Source: Candidatus Berkelbacteria bacterium CG_4_9_14_3_um_filter_39_23
GTDB taxonomy: Bacteria > Patescibacteriota > UBA1384 > GWA2-35-9 > CG2-30-39-44
Assembly: GCA_002789815.1 (NCBI GenBank)
Contig: PFTZ01000046.1
Coordinates: forward strand, 1-44,375
Reading direction: 5' to 3'
DNA length: 44,375 nucleotides
Positions 3,419-35,811 of this stretch are shown here, piece by piece. The notes under the pieces are model-generated. The model was not told the DNA's origin, ran no database searches, and worked only from the letters and a program-made list of their open reading frames with translations. How positions within the stretch are numbered: position 1 is the stretch's first letter; each line of letters begins with the position of its first letter. Both the position numbers and the translations under genes were made by a program.

Positions 3419-4330
3419 ATGGAAGAATCGTTTTTACAATCTAGCGAGTGGGAAAAATTTCAAAAAGCATTTGGAAATCGGGTTTTTCGCATTCAGGGAG
3501 TGCTCTTGATTAAAAACCCTAAGATGCGCCTGCCGTATTTATATGCTCCGCGGGTTGGTAAAATTAACTCGCTGGCAATATTTAAAGACGAACTCAATGT
3601 CTTGGCTAAAAAAGAAAAAGCGGTTTTTGTTAAAATAGAACCATACAAAGTGGCTTTATTAACAGATTTTCCTAACGCTAAACAGTCTGCTACTGTGCAA
3701 CCGCAAACTACACTTTTAGTTAATCTTGGATCAAGCGAGGAAAAAATTTTAGATCAAATGCGATCCAAAACTCGGTATAATATCCGTCTCGCTACTCGGC
3801 ATGGAGTAGAGGTGATCGAGCAAAATACGTTTGAAAGTTTCTGGGCGCTAGCGCAAAAAACCAGTGCGCGGGATAATTTTCGTTATCATTCCAAAAGATA
3901 TTTTGAGCTTATGCTTAAAACATTGGCGCCCAAAATCAAGATATTTAGCGCAATTAAAGAAGGGAAAATTTTAGCGTCAGCGATTGTTTTGTTTTGGGGC
4001 GAGATAACATACTATTTGCACGGCGCGTCGCTTTGGGAGGCGCGTCAGTTAATGGCGCCCTACAAGTTGCACTGGGAAATTATGAAAATCGCCAAAAGAG
4101 CAGGGTGCGGGCAGTATGATATGTGGGGAATCAAATTAAAACCTCAAATCTCAAATCTAAAATCTCAAAATTATTATAGTCAAATTGACATTCACCATTC
4201 CTGGGCGGGGATTACTAGATTCAAATTGGGGTTTGCGCCAGAGGGGAGGATAATCAATTATCCGGACGCTTTAGACTTGATATACCGCCCATTTTGGTAT
4301 AAAATTTATTCCTTGAAGAAAAAGCAATAA
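3419..4330 (+). CDS. FemAB-family peptidoglycan interpeptide-bridge aminoacyltransferase (FemX/MurM-like)
   Basis: 303-aa ORF with 'RSKTRYNIRLATRHG' and 'ITRFKLGFAPEG' FemAB-type motifs. It lies directly upstream of murE. It contains an in-frame low-complexity segment 'KPQISNLKSQN' encoded by 4142..4172. Confidence 0.75.
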   Translation: MEESFLQSSEWEKFQKAFGNRVFRIQGVLLIKNPKMRLPYLYAPRVGKINSLAIFKDELNVLAKKEKAVFVKIEPYKVALLTDFPNAKQSATVQPQTTLLVNLGSSEEKILDQMRSKTRYNIRLATRHGVEVIEQNTFESFWALAQKTSARDNFRYHSKRYFELMLKTLAPKIKIFSAIKEGKILASAIVLFWGEITYYLHGASLWEARQLMAPYKLHWEIMKIAKRAGCGQYDMWGIKLKPQISNLKSQNYYSQIDIHHSWAGITRFKLGFAPEGRIINYPDALDLIYRPFWYKIYSLKKKQ

Positions 4331-23808: not shown

Positions 23809-24020
23809 GTGGTATGTTTGTACCACATCAAGATTTAAATACGCCAATATTCAAAATTCCGTAAGTTTGGAATTTGTATCTTGAAATTTAAAATTTTTCC
23901 GTCATCAGGCGGAACTTATATCTTTATGTGGTTGTAATACGCGCCAAATTTGTTTTTTATAACAAATTAGAGTTTTTTACATTTAACTCTGTTTTGAGCA
24001 AAAAAATAGAGATCAAATTT

Positions 24021-25484
<1,464 letters not shown>

Positions 25485-25884: not shown

Positions 25885-26087
25885 AATAAAATTATCTGAC
25901 CTCCGAAATCCGATATCTGGTATCTGAACCTTGGTGGTGTGTTTTGAATTCTGCTCGTGCGGGCAAAAAGACCCTTCTCCGTAAAACTACAGACGGTTAA
26001 AAGGGGGTTGGAGGGAAGAAATTTTTGCTCGCCCTCGCTTTTCCGTCGCCAAATTTCGTGCCAGTGAAACTGGCGCGCCGCCTAAAT

Positions 26088-26621
26088 CTATTTTACCGTA
26101 TTAAGCAATTCGTTATTATAATCTCGCATTGTATCTTTATTCGTCGGTTTATACAAAATATTTTCTTTGTATTTTAAATAAACTTCGCTATCGGAATGGT
26201 CGGTTAAAGTTATATCATCTTTTACAACTTCCAAAACAACATTTCTATTTTTATTTTGAGTGATTTTTGCATGGCTGAAAGCGTCAATATAAACCATATT
26301 TTCCCATTTGTCTAACATTTTGAAATGATGAATGTTTTCTGACCACGCAAGCGGGACAACATGATGAAGCTCAAAACCAAGGGTTTTTACGACCGTTTGT
26401 TTTACAAAATACTGATATTTTTCGTTTAACGACCTGTCCAACCTCGTTGTTGTCTCGCTAAAACTATTTTGCCCCTCTTTTAATACTAATTGTTCGCCTC
26501 GCACTTCAAAATATACTGTCTGATTTAAAAGATAATATACTTGGACGATTTTGTTGTGCCAGTTATGAAAATCTCTTTTACTAGGTTTTGATCCAGAAAA
26601 ATTTTTTGGTTTTAATTCCAC
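26088..26621 (-). CDS. HNH (beta-beta-alpha-Me) nuclease domain protein; C-terminal part of a stop-interrupted putative restriction endonuclease
   Basis: Has 'FELHHVVPLAWSEN' ... 'NMVYIDAFSHAKI' (His-His...Asn...His pattern). GTG start. It is in the same frame as ORF 26625-27314, separated by TAA plus one codon. Confidence 0.7.
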   Translation of the reverse strand: MELKPKNFSGSKPSKRDFHNWHNKIVQVYYLLNQTVYFEVRGEQLVLKEGQNSFSETTTRLDRSLNEKYQYFVKQTVVKTLGFELHHVVPLAWSENIHHFKMLDKWENMVYIDAFSHAKITQNKNRNVVLEVVKDDITLTDHSDSEVYLKYKENILYKPTNKDTMRDYNNELLNTVK

Positions 26622-26624
26622 TTT

Positions 26625-27314
26625 TTATATTTCTATAACAGATCTTCTTTGTGTTGGAGTTAAATTTCTGTATTCCTTGATAAGTTCAACTGCTTTATCC
26701 GTATTGATATTAAAACTAGATTCTGTGCCAATGGCAGAAACAAAAAACATATACTCATAAATACTGATTTTATCTATATCGTATTCTTTATCTCTTAAAA
26801 TATCTAAAATAATATCAATGTATCCGCCGAGCAAACTATCTATTCCTTTAGAAAAGATAAAATATTTGTCCAGAATAGTTTTTGCCTTGATTAACTTCAA
26901 GCCCTGATTACTTATTGAAACATATTTAACATTTTGCCTAGAAAAAGAATCCGTTGGTTCTTTTTTCTTGTCATATCGTTCAATCAATCCCATTCTGTGA
27001 AGATCAACAAACAAATTTTTTCGCATTGCGTCTTGAGTGCCTATACCTGCTTTTTGTTTAGCTTCATTACAAAATTGAGCATATAAAAACTCTTCGGAAT
27101 AATTTTCTGGTCTCTTGGAAATGTCGGTCGTCCGAATTGTCATCAAATTTTGATTCGGGGCGTATTTATCCAGCAATATTAAAATATCAATGATTTGCGT
27201 CATCACATAACGATTATGTTCCGAAGAAGGAGAGCCACGATACTTCTCGTTTCTTGTTCTAGAATCAATAAATTCTAGAGCTTTATTTCCTGAATTTATA
27301 TTATTTATTGCCAT
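26625..27314 (-). CDS. Unknown 229-aa protein, probable DNA-recognition part of the restriction enzyme
   Basis: Overlaps the upstream methyltransferase gene by 14 nt. I see no nuclease motif. 'LFVDLHRMGLIERYDKK' looks like a winged-helix segment (weak). Confidence 0.55.
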   Translation of the reverse strand: MAINNINSGNKALEFIDSRTRNEKYRGSPSSEHNRYVMTQIIDILILLDKYAPNQNLMTIRTTDISKRPENYSEEFLYAQFCNEAKQKAGIGTQDAMRKNLFVDLHRMGLIERYDKKKEPTDSFSRQNVKYVSISNQGLKLIKAKTILDKYFIFSKGIDSLLGGYIDIILDILRDKEYDIDKISIYEYMFFVSAIGTESSFNINTDKAVELIKEYRNLTPTQRRSVIEI

Positions 27315-28083
27315 ATTTAATCAAGTTTCTTTTTGCTAATTTAACATAGTTTTTATTATTGTCGGAACAAATAAAATTTCTTTTTAATTTTTTTGCGGCT
27401 ACAGCAGTTATGCCGCTTCCGACAAAACAATCTAAAACAAGATCGCCGACATTTGAACTTGCTTTTATAATTCTTTCCACTAATTCTAGTGGTTTAGGTG
27501 TAATATGAGACATTTTAGGAGTTTTGCCGTTGATTTTATTTTTATGCCTCTCGCTTGTGATATGCCATACTTCACCGCAAAGCCTGCCTTTCGGATTAGG
27601 AAACCACCTTTTGCCGTCTTTTAAAATCCCTTTTATCTTTGCGTGTTCAATTCTATCAGTTGATTCATAGGGTACACGAACATCGTCATAATTAAAAATA
27701 TGATTTTCGCCCTTGGTAAAAAACAAAATTGATTCTTGCCCGTTGCTGAATTTTTGTTTTGCCCCGCCCAATCCGTCTCTTTTATCCCAAGTTATCCAAT
27801 TTTGAAAAAATAACCCTTTCGTCACTAAATAAAAAAGAATAAAAGCCGAATTGTAGGGGGTGTTAAAAATATACAAACTGCCGTTTGATTTTAATTTAGG
27901 GATTAAAGCGTCAATCCAGTGAAATGTAAAATCAAAAAAATCTTTTTCGCTCTCAAAACTATCCCATTTTGCCTTATTCAAATTATATGGCGGATCAATA
28001 ACGGCGAGATTTATTGATTTATCATCAATTTTATTTAAAAACTCAAGGCAATCTAAATTGTAAATTTCGTTTATTTTTTTCAT
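27301..28083 (-). CDS. Beta-class N6-adenine/N4-cytosine DNA methyltransferase (DPPY type)
   Basis: Motif IV 'LAVIDPPYNLN' is N-terminal and motif I 'VLDCFVGSGIT' is C-terminal, which is the beta permutation of the N6_N4_Mtase family. Confidence 0.9.
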   Translation of the reverse strand: MKKINEIYNLDCLEFLNKIDDKSINLAVIDPPYNLNKAKWDSFESEKDFFDFTFHWIDALIPKLKSNGSLYIFNTPYNSAFILFYLVTKGLFFQNWITWDKRDGLGGAKQKFSNGQESILFFTKGENHIFNYDDVRVPYESTDRIEHAKIKGILKDGKRWFPNPKGRLCGEVWHITSERHKNKINGKTPKMSHITPKPLELVERIIKASSNVGDLVLDCFVGSGITAVAAKKLKRNFICSDNNKNYVKLAKRNLIKYGNK

Positions 28084-28086
28084 AAC

Positions 28087-28932
28087 TTAAAATAAAGATT
28101 TGAGTTTTAAATTCATTACTCTTTCGTAACTTTTTGATATTTCATAACCGACATAATTTCTTTTTAATTCTTTGGCAATTTTTAATGTTGTGCCAGAACC
28201 AGCAAAGGGGTCCAAAACCGTATCGCCGACATATGTAAATAATCTAACACAACGCCTAACGATTTCTTCGGGCATTATTGCCGAATGCTCGCCAAAGGCC
28301 AAATCGCCTTTCCCCGGAATTGGTATGTTCCAAATTTGTTTTGTAAATTCTACCCATTCTTTTTCAGTCAATTTGCTTTTTTCTTTTATATCTTTTGGCA
28401 AATTATTTTCGGAAGGTCCATCTTTTACATAAACAGTAATAAATTCAATTGTATTTTGAGCATAAAAATTTCTTGGGTAAGGATAACTACCAAACATCAA
28501 TTTTTTACTCGGATTTGTTCTGTTCCAAATAAATACATCAAGCAGGAATAGTCCCGTGCCGTTCAATATTGAGTGTTCAATATCGCTGTTAATGTCAAAT
28601 ATGTGGCGATTAAAATGTGTGTCTAAAACCTTTTTGAACATTGGCATTAGTGGAGTGTTGACGACTAATTTTCCATTTGGCTTTAATACTCTTTCGCATT
28701 CTTTCCAAACCTGCAACATTTCATTAACATATTTTTTATAATCCGCAATGTCGCCAATTTGTCCACGAATTTTTTCTGACCTTTTATCTTTTTGATAACC
28801 GTCAAGGGAATAATCTTTTATATTGAAATATGGCGGACTAGTAACGACCAATTGGACAGAATTGTCTGGCAATTCTGTCATTTTTCTTGCGTCTTTAAAA
28901 AATAATTTGTTTAAATAATCCATAAAATCCAT
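28087..28932 (-). CDS. Beta-class N4-cytosine/N6-adenine DNA methyltransferase (SPPY type)
   Basis: Motif IV 'LVVTSPPYFN' is N-terminal and motif I 'VLDPFAGSGTT' is C-terminal. SPPY is more often seen in m4C enzymes. Confidence 0.9.
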   Translation of the reverse strand: MDFMDYLNKLFFKDARKMTELPDNSVQLVVTSPPYFNIKDYSLDGYQKDKRSEKIRGQIGDIADYKKYVNEMLQVWKECERVLKPNGKLVVNTPLMPMFKKVLDTHFNRHIFDINSDIEHSILNGTGLFLLDVFIWNRTNPSKKLMFGSYPYPRNFYAQNTIEFITVYVKDGPSENNLPKDIKEKSKLTEKEWVEFTKQIWNIPIPGKGDLAFGEHSAIMPEEIVRRCVRLFTYVGDTVLDPFAGSGTTLKIAKELKRNYVGYEISKSYERVMNLKLKSLF

Positions 28933-29039
28933 TTTATTAAATTATCAACGCTAACTTCAAGGGCTTTTGCAAGTTTATTAAGTGTGTCTAATGTTGGATT
29001 TTGATTTTTGCCATCTTCAATTTTTCGGAAGTCAGATTT
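28913..29039 (-). pseudogene. N-terminally truncated Cro/C1 (XRE)-type HTH remnant (controller-protein-like)
   Basis: The minus-strand frame reads 'KSDFRKIEDGKNQNPTLDTLNKLAKALEVSVDNLIKWILWII*'. This matches the C-terminal half of HTH_3 domains (..isriErGkrnPsldtLlklakaLgvsvdeL). There is no start codon or N-terminal helices. The frame begins at the tRNA-Ile 3' end and overlaps the M gene ATG. Confidence 0.5.
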
Positions 29040-29116
29040 TGGTGGGCGCGGATGGACTCGGACCATCGACCTCTTCATTATCAGTGAAGTGCTCTAACCA
29101 ACTGAGCTACGCGCCC
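29040..29116 (-). tRNA. tRNA-Ile (anticodon GAT), CCA encoded, non-canonical T-loop
   Basis: The reverse complement folds as GGGCGCG-TA-GCTC-AGTTGGTTA-GAGC-A-CTTCA-CTGATAA-TGAAG-AGGTC-GATGG-TCCGAGT-CCATC-CGCGCCC-A-CCA. The T-loop is TCCGAGT, with C where the near-universal U55 is expected. Confidence 0.85.
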
Positions 29117-29180
29117 ATTATAATCTCAAATTGTGCTTGTTGTTATTTTCTACTCGTCTTTTTATTCCCGTATCTTCGCC

Positions 29181-29300
29181 TGTCATTCCCGTGAAAACGG
29201 GAATCCAGACAGGGCTGTATCCCCAATCCGAAGCGCTTCGCTTTCGGTTGAGGATGACAAGGGGGTGGAATGATATTTGCGTAAGTTGCGCAATATTCTA
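29181..29300. repeat. Dispersed GATGAC-module repeat, copy 2
   Basis: Hairpin 'cattcccgtgaaaacgggaatc' (inverted gtcat module), then the core 29219-29265, which is identical to 54-100. The tail 'aatgatatttgcgtaagttgcgcaat' is related to 129-160. Confidence 0.8.
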
Positions 29301-29414
29301 AAAAATCAAGAATCTAGCATCTAAGTATAATTCTAGCAATTTTGGGGAAAAAATGCAATAATATGGTCCAGAGGATAGAAACCAGATATCAGTTTTCCGA
29401 TAAAATTTGAAGCA

Positions 29415-29894
29415 ATGCTTTTAACTACCCATATTTTAATCGGGGGAGCGATCGGACAAGCGGTGGGCAATGCGCCACTTGGTTTTGCATTAGGCGCAGT
29501 ATCTCATTTTGCGCTGGACGCTATTCCGCATTTTGATCCGGGAATATGGAGTGATGTCACCAAGGAAAGTGGCGAAAATATTTGGGACAAAAAAATATGG
29601 GCTTTTGTCGCGGTGGATTTATTAGCAACACTCGGATTACTAATCGTGTTGCTCCCGCAAAGTTTATCGCTTCCATTTATCGCTGGCGCTTTAGGTGGCG
29701 CGTCAGTTGATTTGATTGACAATGTGCCATTTTGGCAAAGGAAAATTCACCAAACAAGAATTGGCAAACAGATTGGCAAATTTCACAATTCACTTCATTT
29801 TGTCAAAAAGGAAATCCTGAGAAAAAATGCCATGGCGCTTCTTGTCGTCCAAGTTGTAATTATCGGATTGATTTTTTGGCTGATTGAGCTATAA
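29415..29894 (+). CDS. Membrane protein, possibly YdjM/DUF457-like membrane-bound hydrolase
   Basis: 159 aa, 4-5 TM. N-terminal 'MLLTTHILIGGAIG' and 'HFALDAIPHFD' His-rich motifs resemble that family (from memory). No clear SD. Confidence 0.4.
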   Translation: MLLTTHILIGGAIGQAVGNAPLGFALGAVSHFALDAIPHFDPGIWSDVTKESGENIWDKKIWAFVAVDLLATLGLLIVLLPQSLSLPFIAGALGGASVDLIDNVPFWQRKIHQTRIGKQIGKFHNSLHFVKKEILRKNAMALLVVQVVIIGLIFWLIEL

Positions 29895-29903
29895 TAATTC
29901 CAA

Positions 29904-30107
29904 ATGTTCACAAGAATTTTAATTTTTATTGCTTCTTTGGTTTTGGGCTACCTCGGTCTTCGGTATAATTATTGGGTGGTTAAAACCGTTGGCAAAAGTC
30001 AGTGGGTTGAAAATAAATTCGGCGCTGGTATGACATTTGCGGTTTACCAGCTAATGGCTTTGATTATCATTATACTTGGTTTTGCCCACTTGATTGGGGC
30101 TATTTGA
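29904..30107 (+). CDS. Hypothetical small membrane protein (67 aa, 2 TM)
   Basis: ORF with two hydrophobic helices, starting 10 nt after the previous stop. Confidence 0.3.
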   Translation: MFTRILIFIASLVLGYLGLRYNYWVVKTVGKSQWVENKFGAGMTFAVYQLMALIIIILGFAHLIGAI

Positions 30108-30123
30108 AATAATATTTTATCAT

Positions 30124-30195
30124 GGGCTCGTAGTTCAATGGTAGAACGCTTCATTTGCAATGAAGAGGTTGGGGGTTCGATTCCTCTCGGGTCCA
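30124..30195 (+). tRNA. tRNA-Cys (anticodon GCA), no encoded CCA
   Basis: Folds as GGGCTCG-TA-GTTC-AATGGTA-GAAC-G-CTTCA-TTTGCAA-TGAAG-AGGTT-GGGGG-TTCGATT-CCTCT-CGGGTCC-A. Confidence 0.9.
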
Positions 30196-30208
30196 AAAAT
30201 ATACATCC

Positions 30209-31385: not shown

Positions 31386-31591
31386 ACGGTTTGATTGTCA
31401 ACAACAATCAAAGTAAGTGTAATAAGAGATCACCAAAAGTGTATGGTGGATGCCTTGGCAAAAAACACCGATGAAGGACGTAGTAGCCTGCGATAAGCTT
31501 CGGGTAGCTGGCAAACAAGCTTTGATCCGAAGATGTCCGAATAGGGCAACCTAACTGCGTAAACCGCAGTTGATCGTGCTTCGCACCCAAT

Positions 31592-31726
31592 CTCAAAATT
31601 TAAACCTTCCCGAAAGCTATCGCTAAAGGGCAGGCAAATCTCAAAGTGACCCCGAACAAATTACTTCGCAATTTTACGGGGTAGACAATGTAAAATTTTA
31701 AATTTTGATTTTGAGTGCGTAGTACG
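31592..31726 (+). other. 23S intervening sequence A (domain I, ~135 nt hairpin insertion)
   Basis: It lies between 'ccgaatagggcaacc...' and 'ggtacccgctgaactgaaacatc', where E. coli has about 40 nt. The base pairs cccaatc (31585-31591) with gattggg (31727-31733). The lower stem is made of 'tctcaaaatttaaa' / 'tttaaattttgattttgag'. Confidence 0.6.
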
Positions 31727-31779
31727 ATTGGGTACCCGCTGAACTGAAACATCTTAGTAAGCGGAGGAAAATAAAACAA

Positions 31780-31876
31780 TAATCCCGTTTTCGGGATAGT
31801 GTTTCGCGTCTCGACTTCAAAATGTTAAATTTCAATTTTTGAGATTTGAGATTTGAATTTTGAGATTGCGAAGCAT
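31780..31876 (+). other. 23S intervening sequence B (~97 nt)
   Basis: It interrupts the stretch equivalent to E. coli 'GAGGAAAAGAAAUCAACCGAGAUUCCCCCAGUAGCGGCGAGCGAA', which reads here as 'gaggaaaataaaacaa[insert]tgtgattccttaagtagcggcgagcgaa'. It contains 'tttgagatttgagatttgaattttgagatt'. Confidence 0.6.
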
Positions 31877-32903
31877 TGTGATTCCTTAAGTAGCGGCGAG
31901 CGAAAGAGGAAAAGTCTAGTATTAACGACGATTGAAATTATTAGCAGAATAAACCTGGAAAGGATAACCAAAGCGGGTGATAGTCCCGTAAGCGAAAATT
32001 GTTTCAATTTAAGTTAATCCGATCCCTGATTTTTATTGGGGTGGCAAGTACTGTCAGACACGTGAAATCTGGCAGGAAGATGGGTGGATCATTATCCAAG
32101 ACTAAATATGTTTTTTGACCGATAGTGAACTAGTACCGCGAGGGAAAGGTGAAAAGTACCCCTAGCCGGGGAGTGAAATAGTACCTGAAACCATACACTG
32201 ACAAGGAGTCGGAGCGCGTTTTGCTTAGGCGAAGCGTGTCACGGCGTGCCTTTTGCAGAATGAGCCAACGAGTTGTCATATTTTGCGAGCTCAAGCTTTT
32301 TTAAGGCTGAGGCGTAGGGAAACCGAGTGTTAATAGCGCGATTAGTAAAATGTGGCAGACCCGAAACCGGGTGATCTATCCATGGTCAGGCTGAACTTCG
32401 CCGAAAGGCGGTAGGGAGGGCCGAACACACCAGCGTTGCAAAACTGGGTGATGAATTGTGGATAGTGGTAAAATGCCTATCGAACCCGGAGATAGCTGGT
32501 TCTCCTCGAAATATATTTAGGTATAGCGTTCCACTGCAACCCTGCAGGTAGAGCACTGGTTCGTGTACGGCGGAGAAATTCGTTGGCACGAGTCAAACTC
32601 CGAATAGCAGGACTCAAAGAGTGGAGCAGTCAGTACGTGAGGGCTAAGCTTCATGGTACAAAAGGGAAACAGCCCAGATCGCAATCTAAGGTCCCAAAAT
32701 AAGATTTAAGTGGGAAAGGAAGTAGTCTACCACAGACAAATAGGAGGTTGGCTTAGAAGCAGCCATCCTTTAAAGAAAGCGTAACAGCTCACTATTCGAT
32801 TTTTCTCAACCCGCCTTTGGCGGGAAGAGAGGTAGATTGCGCCGAAAATTCAACGGGGCTAAAATCTTTACCGAAGATGCGGATGCCATTGCTACGCATT
32901 GGA

Positions 32904-33173
32904 AGCATCAAATAACAACATATAAATAACAAACAAATATCTAATTACACGACTTACGTAAATATCTTTCCGCGTTGTCATTGCAAGGCTCCGCCAGCTG
33001 GCGGAAACAAAGTAATCTGGCAAAATTATATGAGATTGCCACGCCTGTTGGCTCGCAACGACATAATACGTAAGTCGTGTAATTACCAAAATTCAAAATG
33101 ACTGAAGCATATAAATATTTTTTACTTTAGAATTTAGGATTTGTTTGGTTATTGTTTCTTGAAATTTGGAATT
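32904..33173 (+). other. 23S intervening sequence in helix 45 (~270 nt)
   Basis: The extended stem pairs gccattgctacgcattgga (32885-32903) with tccattgcatagcagtggc (33174-33192), where E. coli has a short helix-45 hairpin. Inside is a perfect 19-nt inverted repeat, 32942-32960 / 33067-33085, plus gtcat/gatgac-type modules. A smaller ~31-nt expansion is also present at about 32797-32830. Confidence 0.65.
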
Positions 33174-33822
33174 TCCATTGCATAGCAGTGGCGTGGTAGA
33201 GGAGCGTTCTTTAAGCAGCGAAGCTTCACTGTGAAGTGGGGTGGAGTTTAAAGAAGTGCGAATGTTGGCATGAGTAACGAATTAGCCCGGCGAGAAACCG
33301 GGCCACCAAAAGTCTAAGGTTTCCCCCGCAACGATAATCGACGGGGGGTTAGGCGGGAGCTAAGCTTGCGAAAGCGATGCACAGCAGGTTGATATTCCTG
33401 CCCTGCCATATTTTTAAGATATTATGACGCATTTTTAAGCTATTTTATTGCTATGACTATGTAATAAAATGGGGAGAGAGTGACTAGAAAAGTAATATCT
33501 TGCTAAATTTATGGCATCCGTACCGCAAACCGACGCAGGTAGACGGGTTGAGAATACTAAGGTGATCGAGCAAACTCTCGTTAAGGAACTCGGCAAAAAA
33601 ACGTCCGTAACTTCGGAATAAGGACTGCCCGCCTCTTCGGCGGGCCGCAGCGAACGTTTTCCGGGCGACTGTTTATCAAAAACATAGCTCCATGCTAACC
33701 CGCAAGGGGATGTATATGGGGTGATGCCTGCCCAGTGCTGGAAGGTCACGAGGATTAGTGATACCGTGCTACGCACGGTTGAGCTTTGAATCTAAGCCCC
33801 AGTGAACGGCAGCGGTAACTAT

Positions 33823-34519
33823 TAAATAACGGTTAGTAGTTATAAAATCTGGCCAAATGCTGGAAACTCTTGTCAGGTTATTGGTAGGATTAGAAAATTA
33901 TCTAAACCTAACAATCCAATAAATAGAGACAATCAGCAGGAAAGATTTCATAAAAGGAGAAAAATGGATAATAATATTCAAAAAATTCCCGAGAGAATCG
34001 GATGGTATTTTGCGGAATTTGTTGATGGTGAAGGTAGTTTTAATGTTTCACTTAGAAAAAAGCCTGATTATACAATGCATTGGCAAATATGCCCAAGCTT
34101 TAATATTTCACAGAAAAACAGAGCAATTCTTGCCTTATTTAAACATCATTTAAATGTGGGTATATTAAGCGGAGAGCAGATGGATTGTATGCATACGAAT
34201 AGTGAATCACAAAATGCTAAGTGGTATCATTATCCCATTTTTTAATAAATTTAATTTTTTATCTCCAAATCAAAAAAGAAACTTTTCAATATTTAAGGAA
34301 ATAATTAGGTTAATGGACACAGGGATTCATCTGAGTGAAGAAGGATTCAATAAGATTATTGACCCCAGAGAAATTCTAAACAAAGGTAAAGGTAGAAAAC
34401 GAAAATATGAAAAGGATAATTTAAATTATGAAAAATCCCCAGAGACTATACGCCAGAATCGCCAATAAGGCGATATGATATAGTCCGATCTTTATGGAGA
34501 CATAAAGCTAACATAAATG
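33823..34519 (+). mobile_element. Group I intron in 23S helix 69 (insertion after the U equivalent to E. coli ~U1917)
   Basis: The exons 'cggtaactat|' and '|aaccgttctatggtagcgaaattcc' join to match E. coli 'CGUAACUAU|AACGGUCCUAAGGUAGCGAAAUUCC'. The 5' exon ends in U and the intron ends in G (34519). The core element 'gatatagtcc' (34477-34486) resembles the conserved P7/P3 strand of group I introns. A terminal hairpin lies at 34490-34507. Confidence 0.8.
33964..34468 (+). pseudogene. Single-motif LAGLIDADG homing endonuclease gene, frameshifted
   Basis: SD 'aaaggaga' precedes the ATG at 33964. The LAGLIDADG motif is 'FAEFVDGEGSF'. The family-like sequence continues in three different frames: '..ALFKHHLNVG' (frame 1), 'YIKRRADGLYAYE' (frame 3, 34161-34199), then 'IVNHKMLSGIIIPFFNKFNFLS...' (frame 2, to 34468). 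Confidence 0.8.
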
Positions 34520-34933
34520 AACCGTTCTATGGTAGCGAAATTCCTTGGCGTGTAAGTTACGTCCCGCACGAATGGCATAACGGTCTGGAAACTGTCTCAA
34601 CGAGAGGCTCGGTGAAATTACACTGCCGGTAAAGATGCCGGTTACCCGCGGCAAGACGAAAAGACCCCGTGGAGCTTCACTACAGCTTGGCATTGGTTTG
34701 CTTTGCTAAATGTTTAGTCATAGGTGGGAGGGTGTGTGTAGCACTTGTGCTATACGTATTCAACAATGAAAGACCACCCTTGTAGCGTAGCAAATCTAAC
34801 CCTCGTTAAAACGAGGAGACAGTGTTTGGCAGGTAGTTTATCTGGGGCGGATGACTCCTAAAGAGTAACGGAGTCGCTCAAAGGTTGGCTAGTCCCGTAT
34901 GGAAATCGGGATGATAGTGTAAAGGCAAATGCC

Positions 34934-34964
<31 letters not shown>

Positions 34965-35014
34965 CTGCGAAAGCAGGACTTAGTGATCCTCTATCTTTGA
35001 ATGACAGAGATAGA

Positions 35015-35051
<37 letters not shown>

Positions 35052-35612
35052 GATCGCGCCCAATAGCTCACATAGACGGCGCGGTTTGGCACCTCGATGT
35101 CGGCTCAACGCATCCTGGGGGTGGAGCAGCTCCCAAGGGTTTGGCTGTTCGCCAATTAAAGCGTTACGCGAGCTGGGTTCAGAACGTCGCAAGACAGTTC
35201 GGTCTTAATCTGCCGTGGGCGATCAAAACTTGAGGGAAATTCTCCTTAGTACGAGAGGACCAGGAGGAACAAGCCTCTGGTGTACCAGTTGTGCCATCAG
35301 GCGCATCGCTGGGTAGCTATGCTTGTATGGATAACCGCTGAAAGCATATAAGCGGGAAGCCATGCCCAAGATTAGGTTTTGTTTGAGATCCCCCAAAGAC
35401 GATGGGGTTGATAGGTTAGCGGTCTAAGTCCCGTAAGGGATTCAGCCGTCTGATACTAATCGATCGAAGATTTTTTATTACAACTTTGAATTTTTATAAT
35501 TCAAGGTAAAACTTACTTTGATTTTTGTTGACAATTTCGGCATTTTGATTAAATCGCAAGAAGCGAAATTTTTGTATCTAAGTTTTTGGTTGGTTGCGTA
35601 TAAAAATTTTCT

Positions 35613-35748
35613 TCTGGTGATTTTAGCGAACAGGAAACACCCGTTCCCATTCCGAACACGGCTTCGCCTCTTCGGCGGATAAAAGTTAAGCTGTTTTGCG
35701 CCAATGATAGTTACCTCGCAAGGGGTTGCGAAAGTAGGTCATCGCCAG
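35613..35748 (+). rRNA. rrf: 5S ribosomal RNA with an apparent ~21-nt internal hairpin insertion
   Basis: Helix I pairs tctggtgat with atcgccag(a). It has 'cccgttcccattccgaacacgg' and 'aagttaagc', 'gcgccaatgatagt' and 'gcgaaagtagg'. The length is about 136 nt against about 116-120 nt normally. Confidence 0.85.
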
Positions 35749-35811
35749 TTTTTTTGTACTTCAAAAAGTAGGCTAACCCACAGCGGGTCTATTCTTTTTT
35801 TGCAATAATTT

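Follow-up and report, generated by a model that had tools for sequence, protein, structure and literature searches.

A truncated controller-like regulator gene at the tRNA-Ile edge of a decaying MboII-type restriction–modification island in a Berkelbacteria rRNA locus

The MboII restriction–modification (R-M) system consists of the endonuclease R.MboII and the methyltransferases M1.MboII/M.MboIIA and M2.MboII; it acts on GAAGA with cleavage 8/7 nucleotides (nt) away, and Helicobacter pylori possesses an isoschizomer, HpyAII. The classical MboII system is not known to include a regulator gene, and a literature search directed at an MboII controller protein returned nothing specific. Here we analyse a stretch of 44,375 nt, hereafter the window, which is the entire contig PFTZ01000046.1 (C40 in our numbering) of Candidatus Berkelbacteria bacterium CG_4_9_14_3_um_filter_39_23. 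The assembly, designated G000, comprises 672 kb in 115 contigs and is ~92% complete; in what follows, G-numbers denote genomes and L-numbers the loci or contigs compared. Between its 16S and 23S rRNA genes the window holds an R-M cassette headed by half of a helix-turn-helix (HTH) regulator gene, which follows closely upon the 3' end of a tRNA-Ile(GAU) gene. An earlier note on this DNA had read the arrangement as a classic recombination footprint at the 3' end of a tRNA, the tRNA being itself unusual. We consider a plainer account, taken as a whole, to be probable: the fragment is the dead regulator end of a decaying MboII-type island, produced by a microhomology deletion beside an ordinary tRNA that is typical of its lineage.

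The minus-strand frame that follows the CCA end of the tRNA reads KSDFRKIEDGKNQNPTLDTLNKLAKALEVSVDNLIK. Its regulator-derived part (KIEDGKNQNPTLDTLNKLAKALEVSVDNLIK; 28932-29024, minus strand) comprises codons 39-69 of a 69-amino-acid (69-aa) XRE/Cro-C1 HTH gene of the variety that we call type B; in tblastn searches it aligns with residues 39-69 of intact regulator proteins, and it shares 84-90% identity with the C-terminal halves of intact XRE proteins of 65-71 aa (P0123-P0127). Against Pfam profiles the remnant matches HTH_26 above the cut-off of 22 bits (E=5e-5, 23.8 bits, profile positions 27-61 of 63) and HTH_3 below the family cut-off (E=9e-4, profile positions 28-53 of 55). The intact relatives match the HTH profile over its full length; the remnant does not match the whole five-helix XRE/Cro-C1 domain, as it lacks helices 1-2 and the greater part of helix 3. 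The profile searches thus bear out the earlier reading of this segment as the C-terminal half of an XRE domain deprived of its N-terminal helices and start codon. Because the tRNA lies upstream, no start codon yields an intact HTH domain, and no orphan N-terminal half of the regulator was found elsewhere in G000. These comparisons establish the remnant as the 3' half, predicted to be non-functional, of a small XRE-family regulator heading the R-M cassette.

The far end of the remnant has been altered as well. Alignment with the intact cassettes L130, L132 and L050 reveals that a single A-to-G change has converted the regulator stop codon TAG into TGG in the window, and that the frame continues through a read-through tail, WILWII, to a later stop (28911-28931, minus strand). 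It is because of this change that the dead frame is longer and that the first methyltransferase gene, M1, has an extra upstream ATG at 28932. The overlap of the HTH frame with the methyltransferase ATG, which the earlier note took as the expected coupling of a controller gene to its operon, therefore exists but is secondary, given that intact regulators end 5 nt before the M1 ATG.

What did the regulator look like before it was cut? The loci L130 and L132, which share 93.8% DNA identity with window positions 29024-26082, carry in this order a 69-aa gene (with matches to HTH_3, HTH_19, HTH_26 and HTH_31), M1, a second methyltransferase gene M2 and an endonuclease gene R of 408 aa. The proposal that the truncated regulator belongs to the R-M operon is supported by this full-length HTH gene in the same position. 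In the intact cassettes L130, L132, L050 and L053 the regulator, 69-72 aa long, is co-oriented with the following genes and ends at most 5 nt before the M1 start; it precedes M1 and M2, with R last, and so does not stand directly ahead of the endonuclease gene. The promoter of the intact regulator is conserved (TTTAC-N17-TGATATAAT) and is followed in type-A cassettes by the palindrome AGGTTAATAACCT, with a different palindrome occupying the same place in L053; judged by its position, the palindrome would look like the putative operator of an autoregulated controller-like gene. None of the promoter, the palindrome or the first 38 regulator codons is left in the window. We also sought the direct progenitor of the remnant, an intact type-B regulator immediately preceding an MboII-type M1, and rejected the available candidates, since the placeable ones, L141, L153 and L154, head other operons or lie at contig ends.

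Four tightly packed minus-strand open reading frames (ORFs) lie between the 16S rRNA gene and tRNA-Ile: M1, M2 and two frames of 229 and 177 aa. M1 (28087-28932, minus strand; Pfam PF01555, E=2e-48) encodes an N6_N4 DNA methyltransferase with an SPPY motif, and its homologous start is the ATG at 28923, which gives a protein of 278 aa. Its homologues carry the JGI name N4-cytosine-specific, and the modification that it introduces is probably N4-methylcytosine. They number in the thousands at 85-100% identity, in many lineages of the Candidate Phyla Radiation (CPR) and in other phyla, and also occur in Helicobacter pylori strains at 58% identity; this spread across lineages indicates that the cassette is horizontally mobile. 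M2 (27301-28083, minus strand; PF01555, E=9e-60) is an N6-adenine methyltransferase with a DPPY motif and a homologue of M.MboIIA (PDB 1G60), to which it aligns from residue 2 to residue 250 of both proteins (E=3.7e-122; 260 aa against 260 aa). The third gene, R, is a pseudogene of a restriction endonuclease with a frame of 408 codons (26088-27314, minus strand), in which an in-frame TAA at 26625-26627 leaves the ORFs of 229 and 177 aa. No profile exists for this protein family, and R is intact as a single ORF of 408-417 aa in L130, L132, L134, L049 and L046. The full-length relationship of M2 to M.MboIIA, together with the intact R of 408-417 aa, assigns the cassette to the MboII, type IIS kind. 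As had been proposed, the R-M block is an island gained by horizontal transfer, and its left edge lies next to the tRNA 3' end; cassettes with ~94% DNA identity occur elsewhere.

In all the contexts that were aligned, the cassette ends on its right side in a GC-rich hairpin element (25951-26087, minus strand) resembling a terminator or a repetitive extragenic palindrome (REP). Dispersed copies of it occur in G000 and in other CPR genomes, and in L130 the element is also present, inverted, at the left side of the cassette. The resulting 72-nt inverted repeats (L130 4528-4599 and 8558-8629, 92% complementary) bracket the regulator, M1, M2, R and a DUF4145 gene. Between L130 and L131, the cassette is inverted relative to an adjacent MmeI-like gene.

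The decay of the cassette can be followed in a population set of 13 contigs from several samples and sources, all of which carry the remnant and the 15 nt that separate it from the CCA. The tRNA junction is identical in 12 of the 13, and its presence in 12 contigs of different samples and sources led us to reject an assembly artefact as its origin. Every population contig that reaches R has the TAA stop; beyond this, an extra stop at M1 codon 198 is found in three contigs and an early M2 frameshift in one (L143, L144, L147 and L149). The stop in R and the breaks in M1 or M2 of some strains show an R-M island that is eroding. The ratio of nonsynonymous to synonymous divergence (dN/dS) of M1 is 0.05-0.07 in comparisons with L130, L134 and L049, and that of M1, M2 and R against intact copies is 0.05-0.13. 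Such strong past purifying selection on all three genes implies that the decay is recent.

Where exactly was the regulator broken? The earlier note had placed the breakpoint precisely at the tRNA end, which is not what the alignments give: regulator homology begins at 29024 (AAAATTGAAG, codon 39 onward, KIE... in translation), 15 nt or five codons past the CCA. The intervening 15 nt, AAATCTGACTTCCGA (29025-29039, minus strand), find no match in intact regulator genes and represent a tRNA trailer or the tail of a dispersed repeat rather than regulator sequence. Window positions 29017-29044, made up of CACCA, the 15 nt and the octamer AAAATTGA, agree at 26 of 28 positions with the tail of a module in L142, an unrelated contig that holds no R-M genes; there the tail reads ...CACCAAAATCTGACTTTCGGAAAATTGACCGAC, and the module runs on as ...AAAATTGACCGAC into a GC-rich hairpin. 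Like trailers follow other CCA-encoding tRNAs of G000, namely tRNA-Pro(cgg), with GAC-N5-AAAAATTGA, and tRNA-Gly(gcc). The octamer (29017-29024, minus strand) is common to this trailer or repeat-tail module and to regulator codons 38-41: it occupies these codons in every intact type-B gene examined, and the intact type-B genes of L141, L153 and L154 read ...ATTAT(C/T)AAAATTGAA... at the junction point. The 8-nt identity between the trailer or repeat and the regulator gene places the junction within that identity, which would be the site of the crossover.

The course of events that we favour is as follows. An MboII-type cassette was acquired horizontally and came to sit directly 3' of the single, essential tRNA-Ile(GAU) gene, in an ancestrally expanded and unlinked 16S-23S interval. 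Microhomology-mediated deletion, or some other illegitimate recombination, at AAAATTGA, 15-23 nt past the CCA, would have taken out the hairpin downstream of the tRNA, the cassette promoter, the operator and regulator codons 1-38. The endonuclease would since have been killed by the TAA, with M1 or M2 also being broken in some strains. The remaining methyltransferases would presumably depend for their transcription solely on the tRNA-Ile promoter, by way of read-through, or on a weak internal promoter.

A microhomology deletion of this kind appears to fit the junction better than integrase-mediated insertion. In the latter scenario a tyrosine or serine integrase would have inserted the island at the 3' end of tRNA-Ile, and the crossover itself or a faulty excision would have cut the regulator. 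The island does abut the tRNA 3' end directly, and the genes 3' of tRNA-Ile change from relative to relative: G001 has a HicAB-like pair there, whereas G022, G017 and G040 have different genes. In a Falkowbacteria genome (locus L049) a full cassette with a stop-ridden regulator starts ~20 nt after tRNA-Val(cac). In L042 a related cassette is flanked by large serine recombinases, and in G001 an enzyme of this kind adjoins tRNA-Ala. The island itself (25951-29039), however, contains the remnant, M1, M2 and R only, and there is no integrase or recombinase within or beside it. A repeat of the tRNA 3' end, for which the earlier note had proposed a search at the other island edge, is likewise missing: an 18-mer search allowing up to three mismatches matched only the tRNA itself in the window, so that no repeat of at least 15/18 nt exists, and nothing goes beyond the 7-mer CCACCAA near 25933-25939, whose presence at both island edges is compatible with chance. 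The break, moreover, falls 15-23 nt past the CCA, in trailer or repeat sequence; the same cassette is found elsewhere at junctions free of tRNA genes; and an attP site inside the coding sequence of a regulator would be unusual. On these grounds the classic tRNA 3'-end footprint is not supported, and we regard insertion by an integrase as quite unlikely.

How, then, might cassettes of this kind come to lie near tRNA genes? In other cassette contexts tRNA genes are situated 0.6-2.2 kb upstream. The hairpin elements bracketing the cassette often stand next to tRNA genes on their 3' side, which may explain the association between cassette and tRNA without an integrase. A direct repeat in the window (D13; 26115-26132 and 29117-29134, 16 of 18 positions) was considered and rejected, as one of its copies lies within conserved R coding sequence and its occurrence is estimated to be at chance level.

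Several observations weigh against the deletion account or complicate it. In the unrelated context of loci L134-L138 (locus coordinates 3880-4000), a type-B remnant is cut at the same codon to within one codon, behind a different flank; this context has an M1 whose protein is 97% identical to that of the window. The two remnants share 72% identity with each other and 82-85% with intact type-B genes; the versions of the window and of L134 differ by 6, 3 and 17 changes at codon positions 1, 2 and 3, and their synonymous divergence is far above that of M1. This pattern is not that of a single old neutral pseudogene, and suggests either that the truncations are recent and independent or that the regulator segment has been exchanged; compared with M1, it also implies that M1-M2-R and the regulator segment have had different histories. 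A further complication comes from L140, a contig of the same locus that is 99.6% identical over 6.1 kb and in which a repeat element replaces the tRNA body upstream of CACCA. The order of events is thereby made ambiguous: either the majority form is the product of a deletion between two copies of CACCA, or L140 records an insertion at the tRNA 3' end. An empty site was not found either, as 10 of the 10 listed contigs with the exact 159-aa neighbour protein carry the island, and no same-genus genome without the island was found in the genome collection, which contains no other member of the genus.

The coincidence of the two cuts raises the question whether codon 39 is a site-specific or microhomology-driven recombination hot spot in XRE regulators, through which defence cassettes are exchanged or captured and truncation recurs. 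The cuts in the window and in L134-L138 fall within 3 nt of each other while the upstream flanks are unrelated; the remnants derive from diverged type-B alleles, each of which is nearer to intact genes than to the other remnant; and the regulator has a history different from that of M1-M2-R, L130 and L134 having 97.7% M1 DNA identity yet different regulator types. Paralogous XRE genes, in addition, head several different cassettes in G000 and elsewhere. Against this stand the facts that just two truncated contexts are known, that the chance of a matching cut codon is ~0.03-0.05 as estimated from gene length, that no recombinase is linked to the site, and that the microhomology at AAAATTGA explains the window junction, nothing comparable being seen in L134. 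We hold such a hot spot to be unlikely; the two truncations seem to have happened recently and independently. We also tried, and rejected, the idea that L134 and the window inherited one ancestral junction, since the left flank of L134 has no significant similarity to the repeat tail when judged against shuffled sequences.

The same comparison bears on whether the remnant frame is being maintained, either for translational coupling to M1 or as a half-domain peptide. It comprises 55 open codons running into the M1 start, third positions are over-represented among the changes that separate the window remnant from that of L134 (dN/dS of ~0.07 over 31 codons), and L134 has an ATG-initiated version of 33 codons. 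The third-position bias is, however, equally explained by recent membership in an intact gene. No ATG, GTG or TTG occurs between the tRNA and the beginning of homology in the window, the original stop codon is lost, and what remains is half of an HTH domain without helices 1-2 and most of helix 3; in L137 the remnant has suffered a further deletion of 48 nt. Maintenance of the frame thus appears very improbable.

A broader conjecture can be built on these data. G000 contains at least five paralogues of the XRE family, which head different gene sets and of which four are full-length. XRE genes and tRNA-trailer/hairpin modules might together serve as integrase-free handles by which R-M, abortive infection (Abi) and toxin–antitoxin (TA) cassettes are swapped near tRNAs, with the cut at codon 39 as a signature; the tRNA terminator would have been lost in the process, giving a co-transcript of tRNA and mRNA with two orphan methyltransferases. 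If true, the transcription unit of an essential tRNA would be fused to two orphan DNA methyltransferase genes. We consider this doubtful as a whole, although XRE regulator heads and defence cassettes appear to be exchanged in modular fashion next to tRNA/repeat modules, which may merit follow-up. Two further XRE loci of G000 can be recorded here. On contig C36 an XRE paralogue is found downstream of tRNA-Pro(cgg) and a hairpin repeat. On C100 (192-2101; L158) a 68-aa XRE gene is followed 4 nt downstream by a 287-aa ORF and then by an ORF resembling a 5-methylcytosine methyltransferase, an assignment read from an N-terminal cytosine-5 motif in the sequence; this is the classical controller order and a second R-M-like locus.

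The tRNA at the edge of the island turns out to be ordinary for its lineage. Its position, 29040-29116 on the minus strand between plus-strand 16S and 23S genes, had been given correctly and is supported by both ARAGORN and Rfam (73.9 bits). The gene encodes its CCA and folds into a perfect cloverleaf with a GAU anticodon and an A73 discriminator. A second tRNA-Ile(GAU), for which a search had been proposed, is not found among the 40 tRNA genes of G000, and as the only copy the gene must be functional. The antisense orientation is kept in five relatives (G001, G040, G022, G017 and G027), of which G001 belongs to the same family as G000 and at least four to other families, and the R-M cassette of the window is absent 3' of tRNA-Ile in all five. 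In G001, G040, G022 and G017 the tRNA diverges from two membrane-protein genes and tRNA-Ala within a multi-kb 16S-23S interval; G027 retains the two membrane-protein genes and the antisense tRNA-Ile but has tRNA-Ala(UGC) on the opposite strand. Since the orientation is shared by relatives that have no R-M cassette at the site, it predates the island; the antisense orientation is ancestral, and the tRNA is neither a displaced nor a defective copy. The antisense placement and the aberrant T-loop for which the tRNA had been called unusual are thus real, but both are typical of the lineage.

That T-loop reads UCCGAGU and has C at the near-invariant U55 position, as the earlier note reported; C55 lies at window position 29061. 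It is not confined to this gene, as 5 of the 40 tRNAs of G000 carry it (Val-GAC, Val-UAC, His-GUG, Gly-UCC and Ile-GAU). Among relatives it is sporadic, occurring in 3 of 62 tRNAs in the loci examined, and 21 of 22 distinct tRNA-Ile(GAU) genes at the relatives' loci (21 genomes) have U55, the exception being in G019. G000 and 18 of 21 related genomes lack the domain of TruB (PF01509), the pseudouridine-55 synthase, which was detected in 14 of 14 control genomes. Loss of TruB, whereby the constraint on U55 was relaxed, is the simplest explanation for C55. A literature search on C55 and TruB loss in CPR found nothing specific, and the combination of widespread TruB loss and U55-to-C changes in CPR tRNAs may merit follow-up by specialists.

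The isoleucine tRNAs of G000 offer one more observation. The genome has a tRNA-Ile with anticodon UAU (C57:2142-2218), also found in G039, and only two CAU tRNAs, the initiator and the elongator Met; contig C10:1086-1271 is listed with this observation. It suggests that AUA is read without a lysidine-bearing tRNA-Ile2 in G000.

On its other side the tRNA-Ile gene faces a conserved syntenic block (29415-30196, plus strand) of two membrane-protein genes, encoding 159 and 67 aa, and tRNA-Ala(UGC), the latter at 30123-30196 (plus strand; Rfam and ARAGORN). The intergenic region between the divergent tRNA-Ile and 159-aa genes (29117-29414) is the presumed site of the tRNA-Ile promoter. A consensus scan alone gives a promoter-like match, ATAACA-18-TATAAT, at 29117-29146 (minus strand); it ends one base before +1 of tRNA-Ile, so a normal transcription start would fall within the acceptor stem. 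The membrane-protein pair (29415-30107), with proteins of ~155 aa bearing an HxxxD..PH motif and ~67 aa, has no Pfam or NCBIfam assignment and adjoins tRNA-Ile also in relatives (L034-L037 and L040), among them members of other families, mostly between tRNA-Ile and tRNA-Ala. The sequence ACCAGATATCRG occurs exactly twice in the window, at 25910-25921 (minus strand) and 29381-29392 (plus strand), each copy preceding by ~15-40 nt a small membrane-protein ORF that faces outward (70 aa at the first site, 159 aa at the second). The copies form a 24-nt inverted repeat of 83% that brackets the island and tRNA-Ile, and may be a common operator or 5'-untranslated-region element. In G001 (L034, C38), the gene for a 504-aa large serine recombinase (621-2135) runs into the 3' end of tRNA-Ala, and its last ~40 codons recur inverted nearby (coordinates given as 286-552); the same genome has a HicB/HicA-like pair downstream of tRNA-Ile.

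The rRNA genes themselves, all on the plus strand and placed by Rfam, are 16S (24019-25482), 23S (31423-35479) and 5S (35613-35750), and the gap of 5.9 kb between 16S and 23S contains protein-coding genes. The 23S gene is 4057 nt long against a model of 2925 positions, which implies large insertions in the gene.

What the window offers, in our opinion, is a well-documented snapshot of an R-M cassette that was transferred into a very small CPR genome and is now dying there. Its losses, listed here in no particular order, comprise the regulator together with its promoter, the nuclease and, in some strains, the methylases. The analysis also corrects three over-readings of the locus, namely that the tRNA is displaced or defective, that its orientation is derived and that its T-loop is an oddity of this gene instead of a lineage trait tied to the absence of TruB.

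How does this locus compare with systems already described? Outside the cassette, two features have precedents. Ribosomal RNA genes more than 1500 bp apart have been termed unlinked, and Patescibacteria are listed among the clades with this organization (Brewer et al., bioRxiv 10.1101/705046). The window conforms, with 16S and 23S 5.9 kb apart and protein genes between them; unlinked rRNA genes are therefore already known from Patescibacteria. The spacer of the window differs in that it keeps tRNA-Ile and tRNA-Ala, the former inverted and separated from the latter by two conserved membrane-protein genes. Loss of TruB is likewise on record from the reduced genomes of Mollicutes, including hemoplasmas, Mycoplasma genitalium and M. 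pneumoniae (PMC4014445). The likeness lies in a missing pseudouridine-55 synthase gene in a small-genome lineage, and the difference in the actual U55-to-C change that G000 exhibits in ~1/8 of its tRNA genes.

The position of the island recalls the genomic islands at tRNA 3' ends, as acquired defence cargo sits directly 3' of a tRNA and the content of this place is variable among relatives. Unlike them, it has no integrase and no att duplication, and its trailer junction lies at an 8-nt microhomology. The intact regulator, in turn, resembles the controller (C) proteins of R-M systems, such as C.PvuII, C.AhdI and C.BclI: it is a small protein with a single XRE HTH domain, its gene heads an R-M operon, and it shows weak similarity to C.BclI (PDB 2B5A, E=1.4e-5); a palindrome that may act as its operator lies beside its own promoter. 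It departs from them in standing ahead of methyltransferase genes rather than the endonuclease gene, in having its closest relatives at the head of non-R-M operons (AbiEii and patatin neighbourhoods), and in finding its best structural-sequence matches in CylR2 and SinR.

The closest counterpart of the cassette remains the MboII system. Both share a full-length homologue of M.MboIIA, here M2, and an arrangement in which an endonuclease of ~408-417 aa comes after two N6_N4 methyltransferases of the beta class, and M1 has homologues in Helicobacter pylori, the host of HpyAII, at 58% identity. Many of the cassettes considered here differ in that M1 is preceded by a small gene of the XRE or HTH_17 type, and that of the window differs further in that its endonuclease is a nonsense pseudogene and its regulator is truncated. 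The finding is therefore real but ordinary: the truncated controller-like regulator of a decaying MboII-type island.

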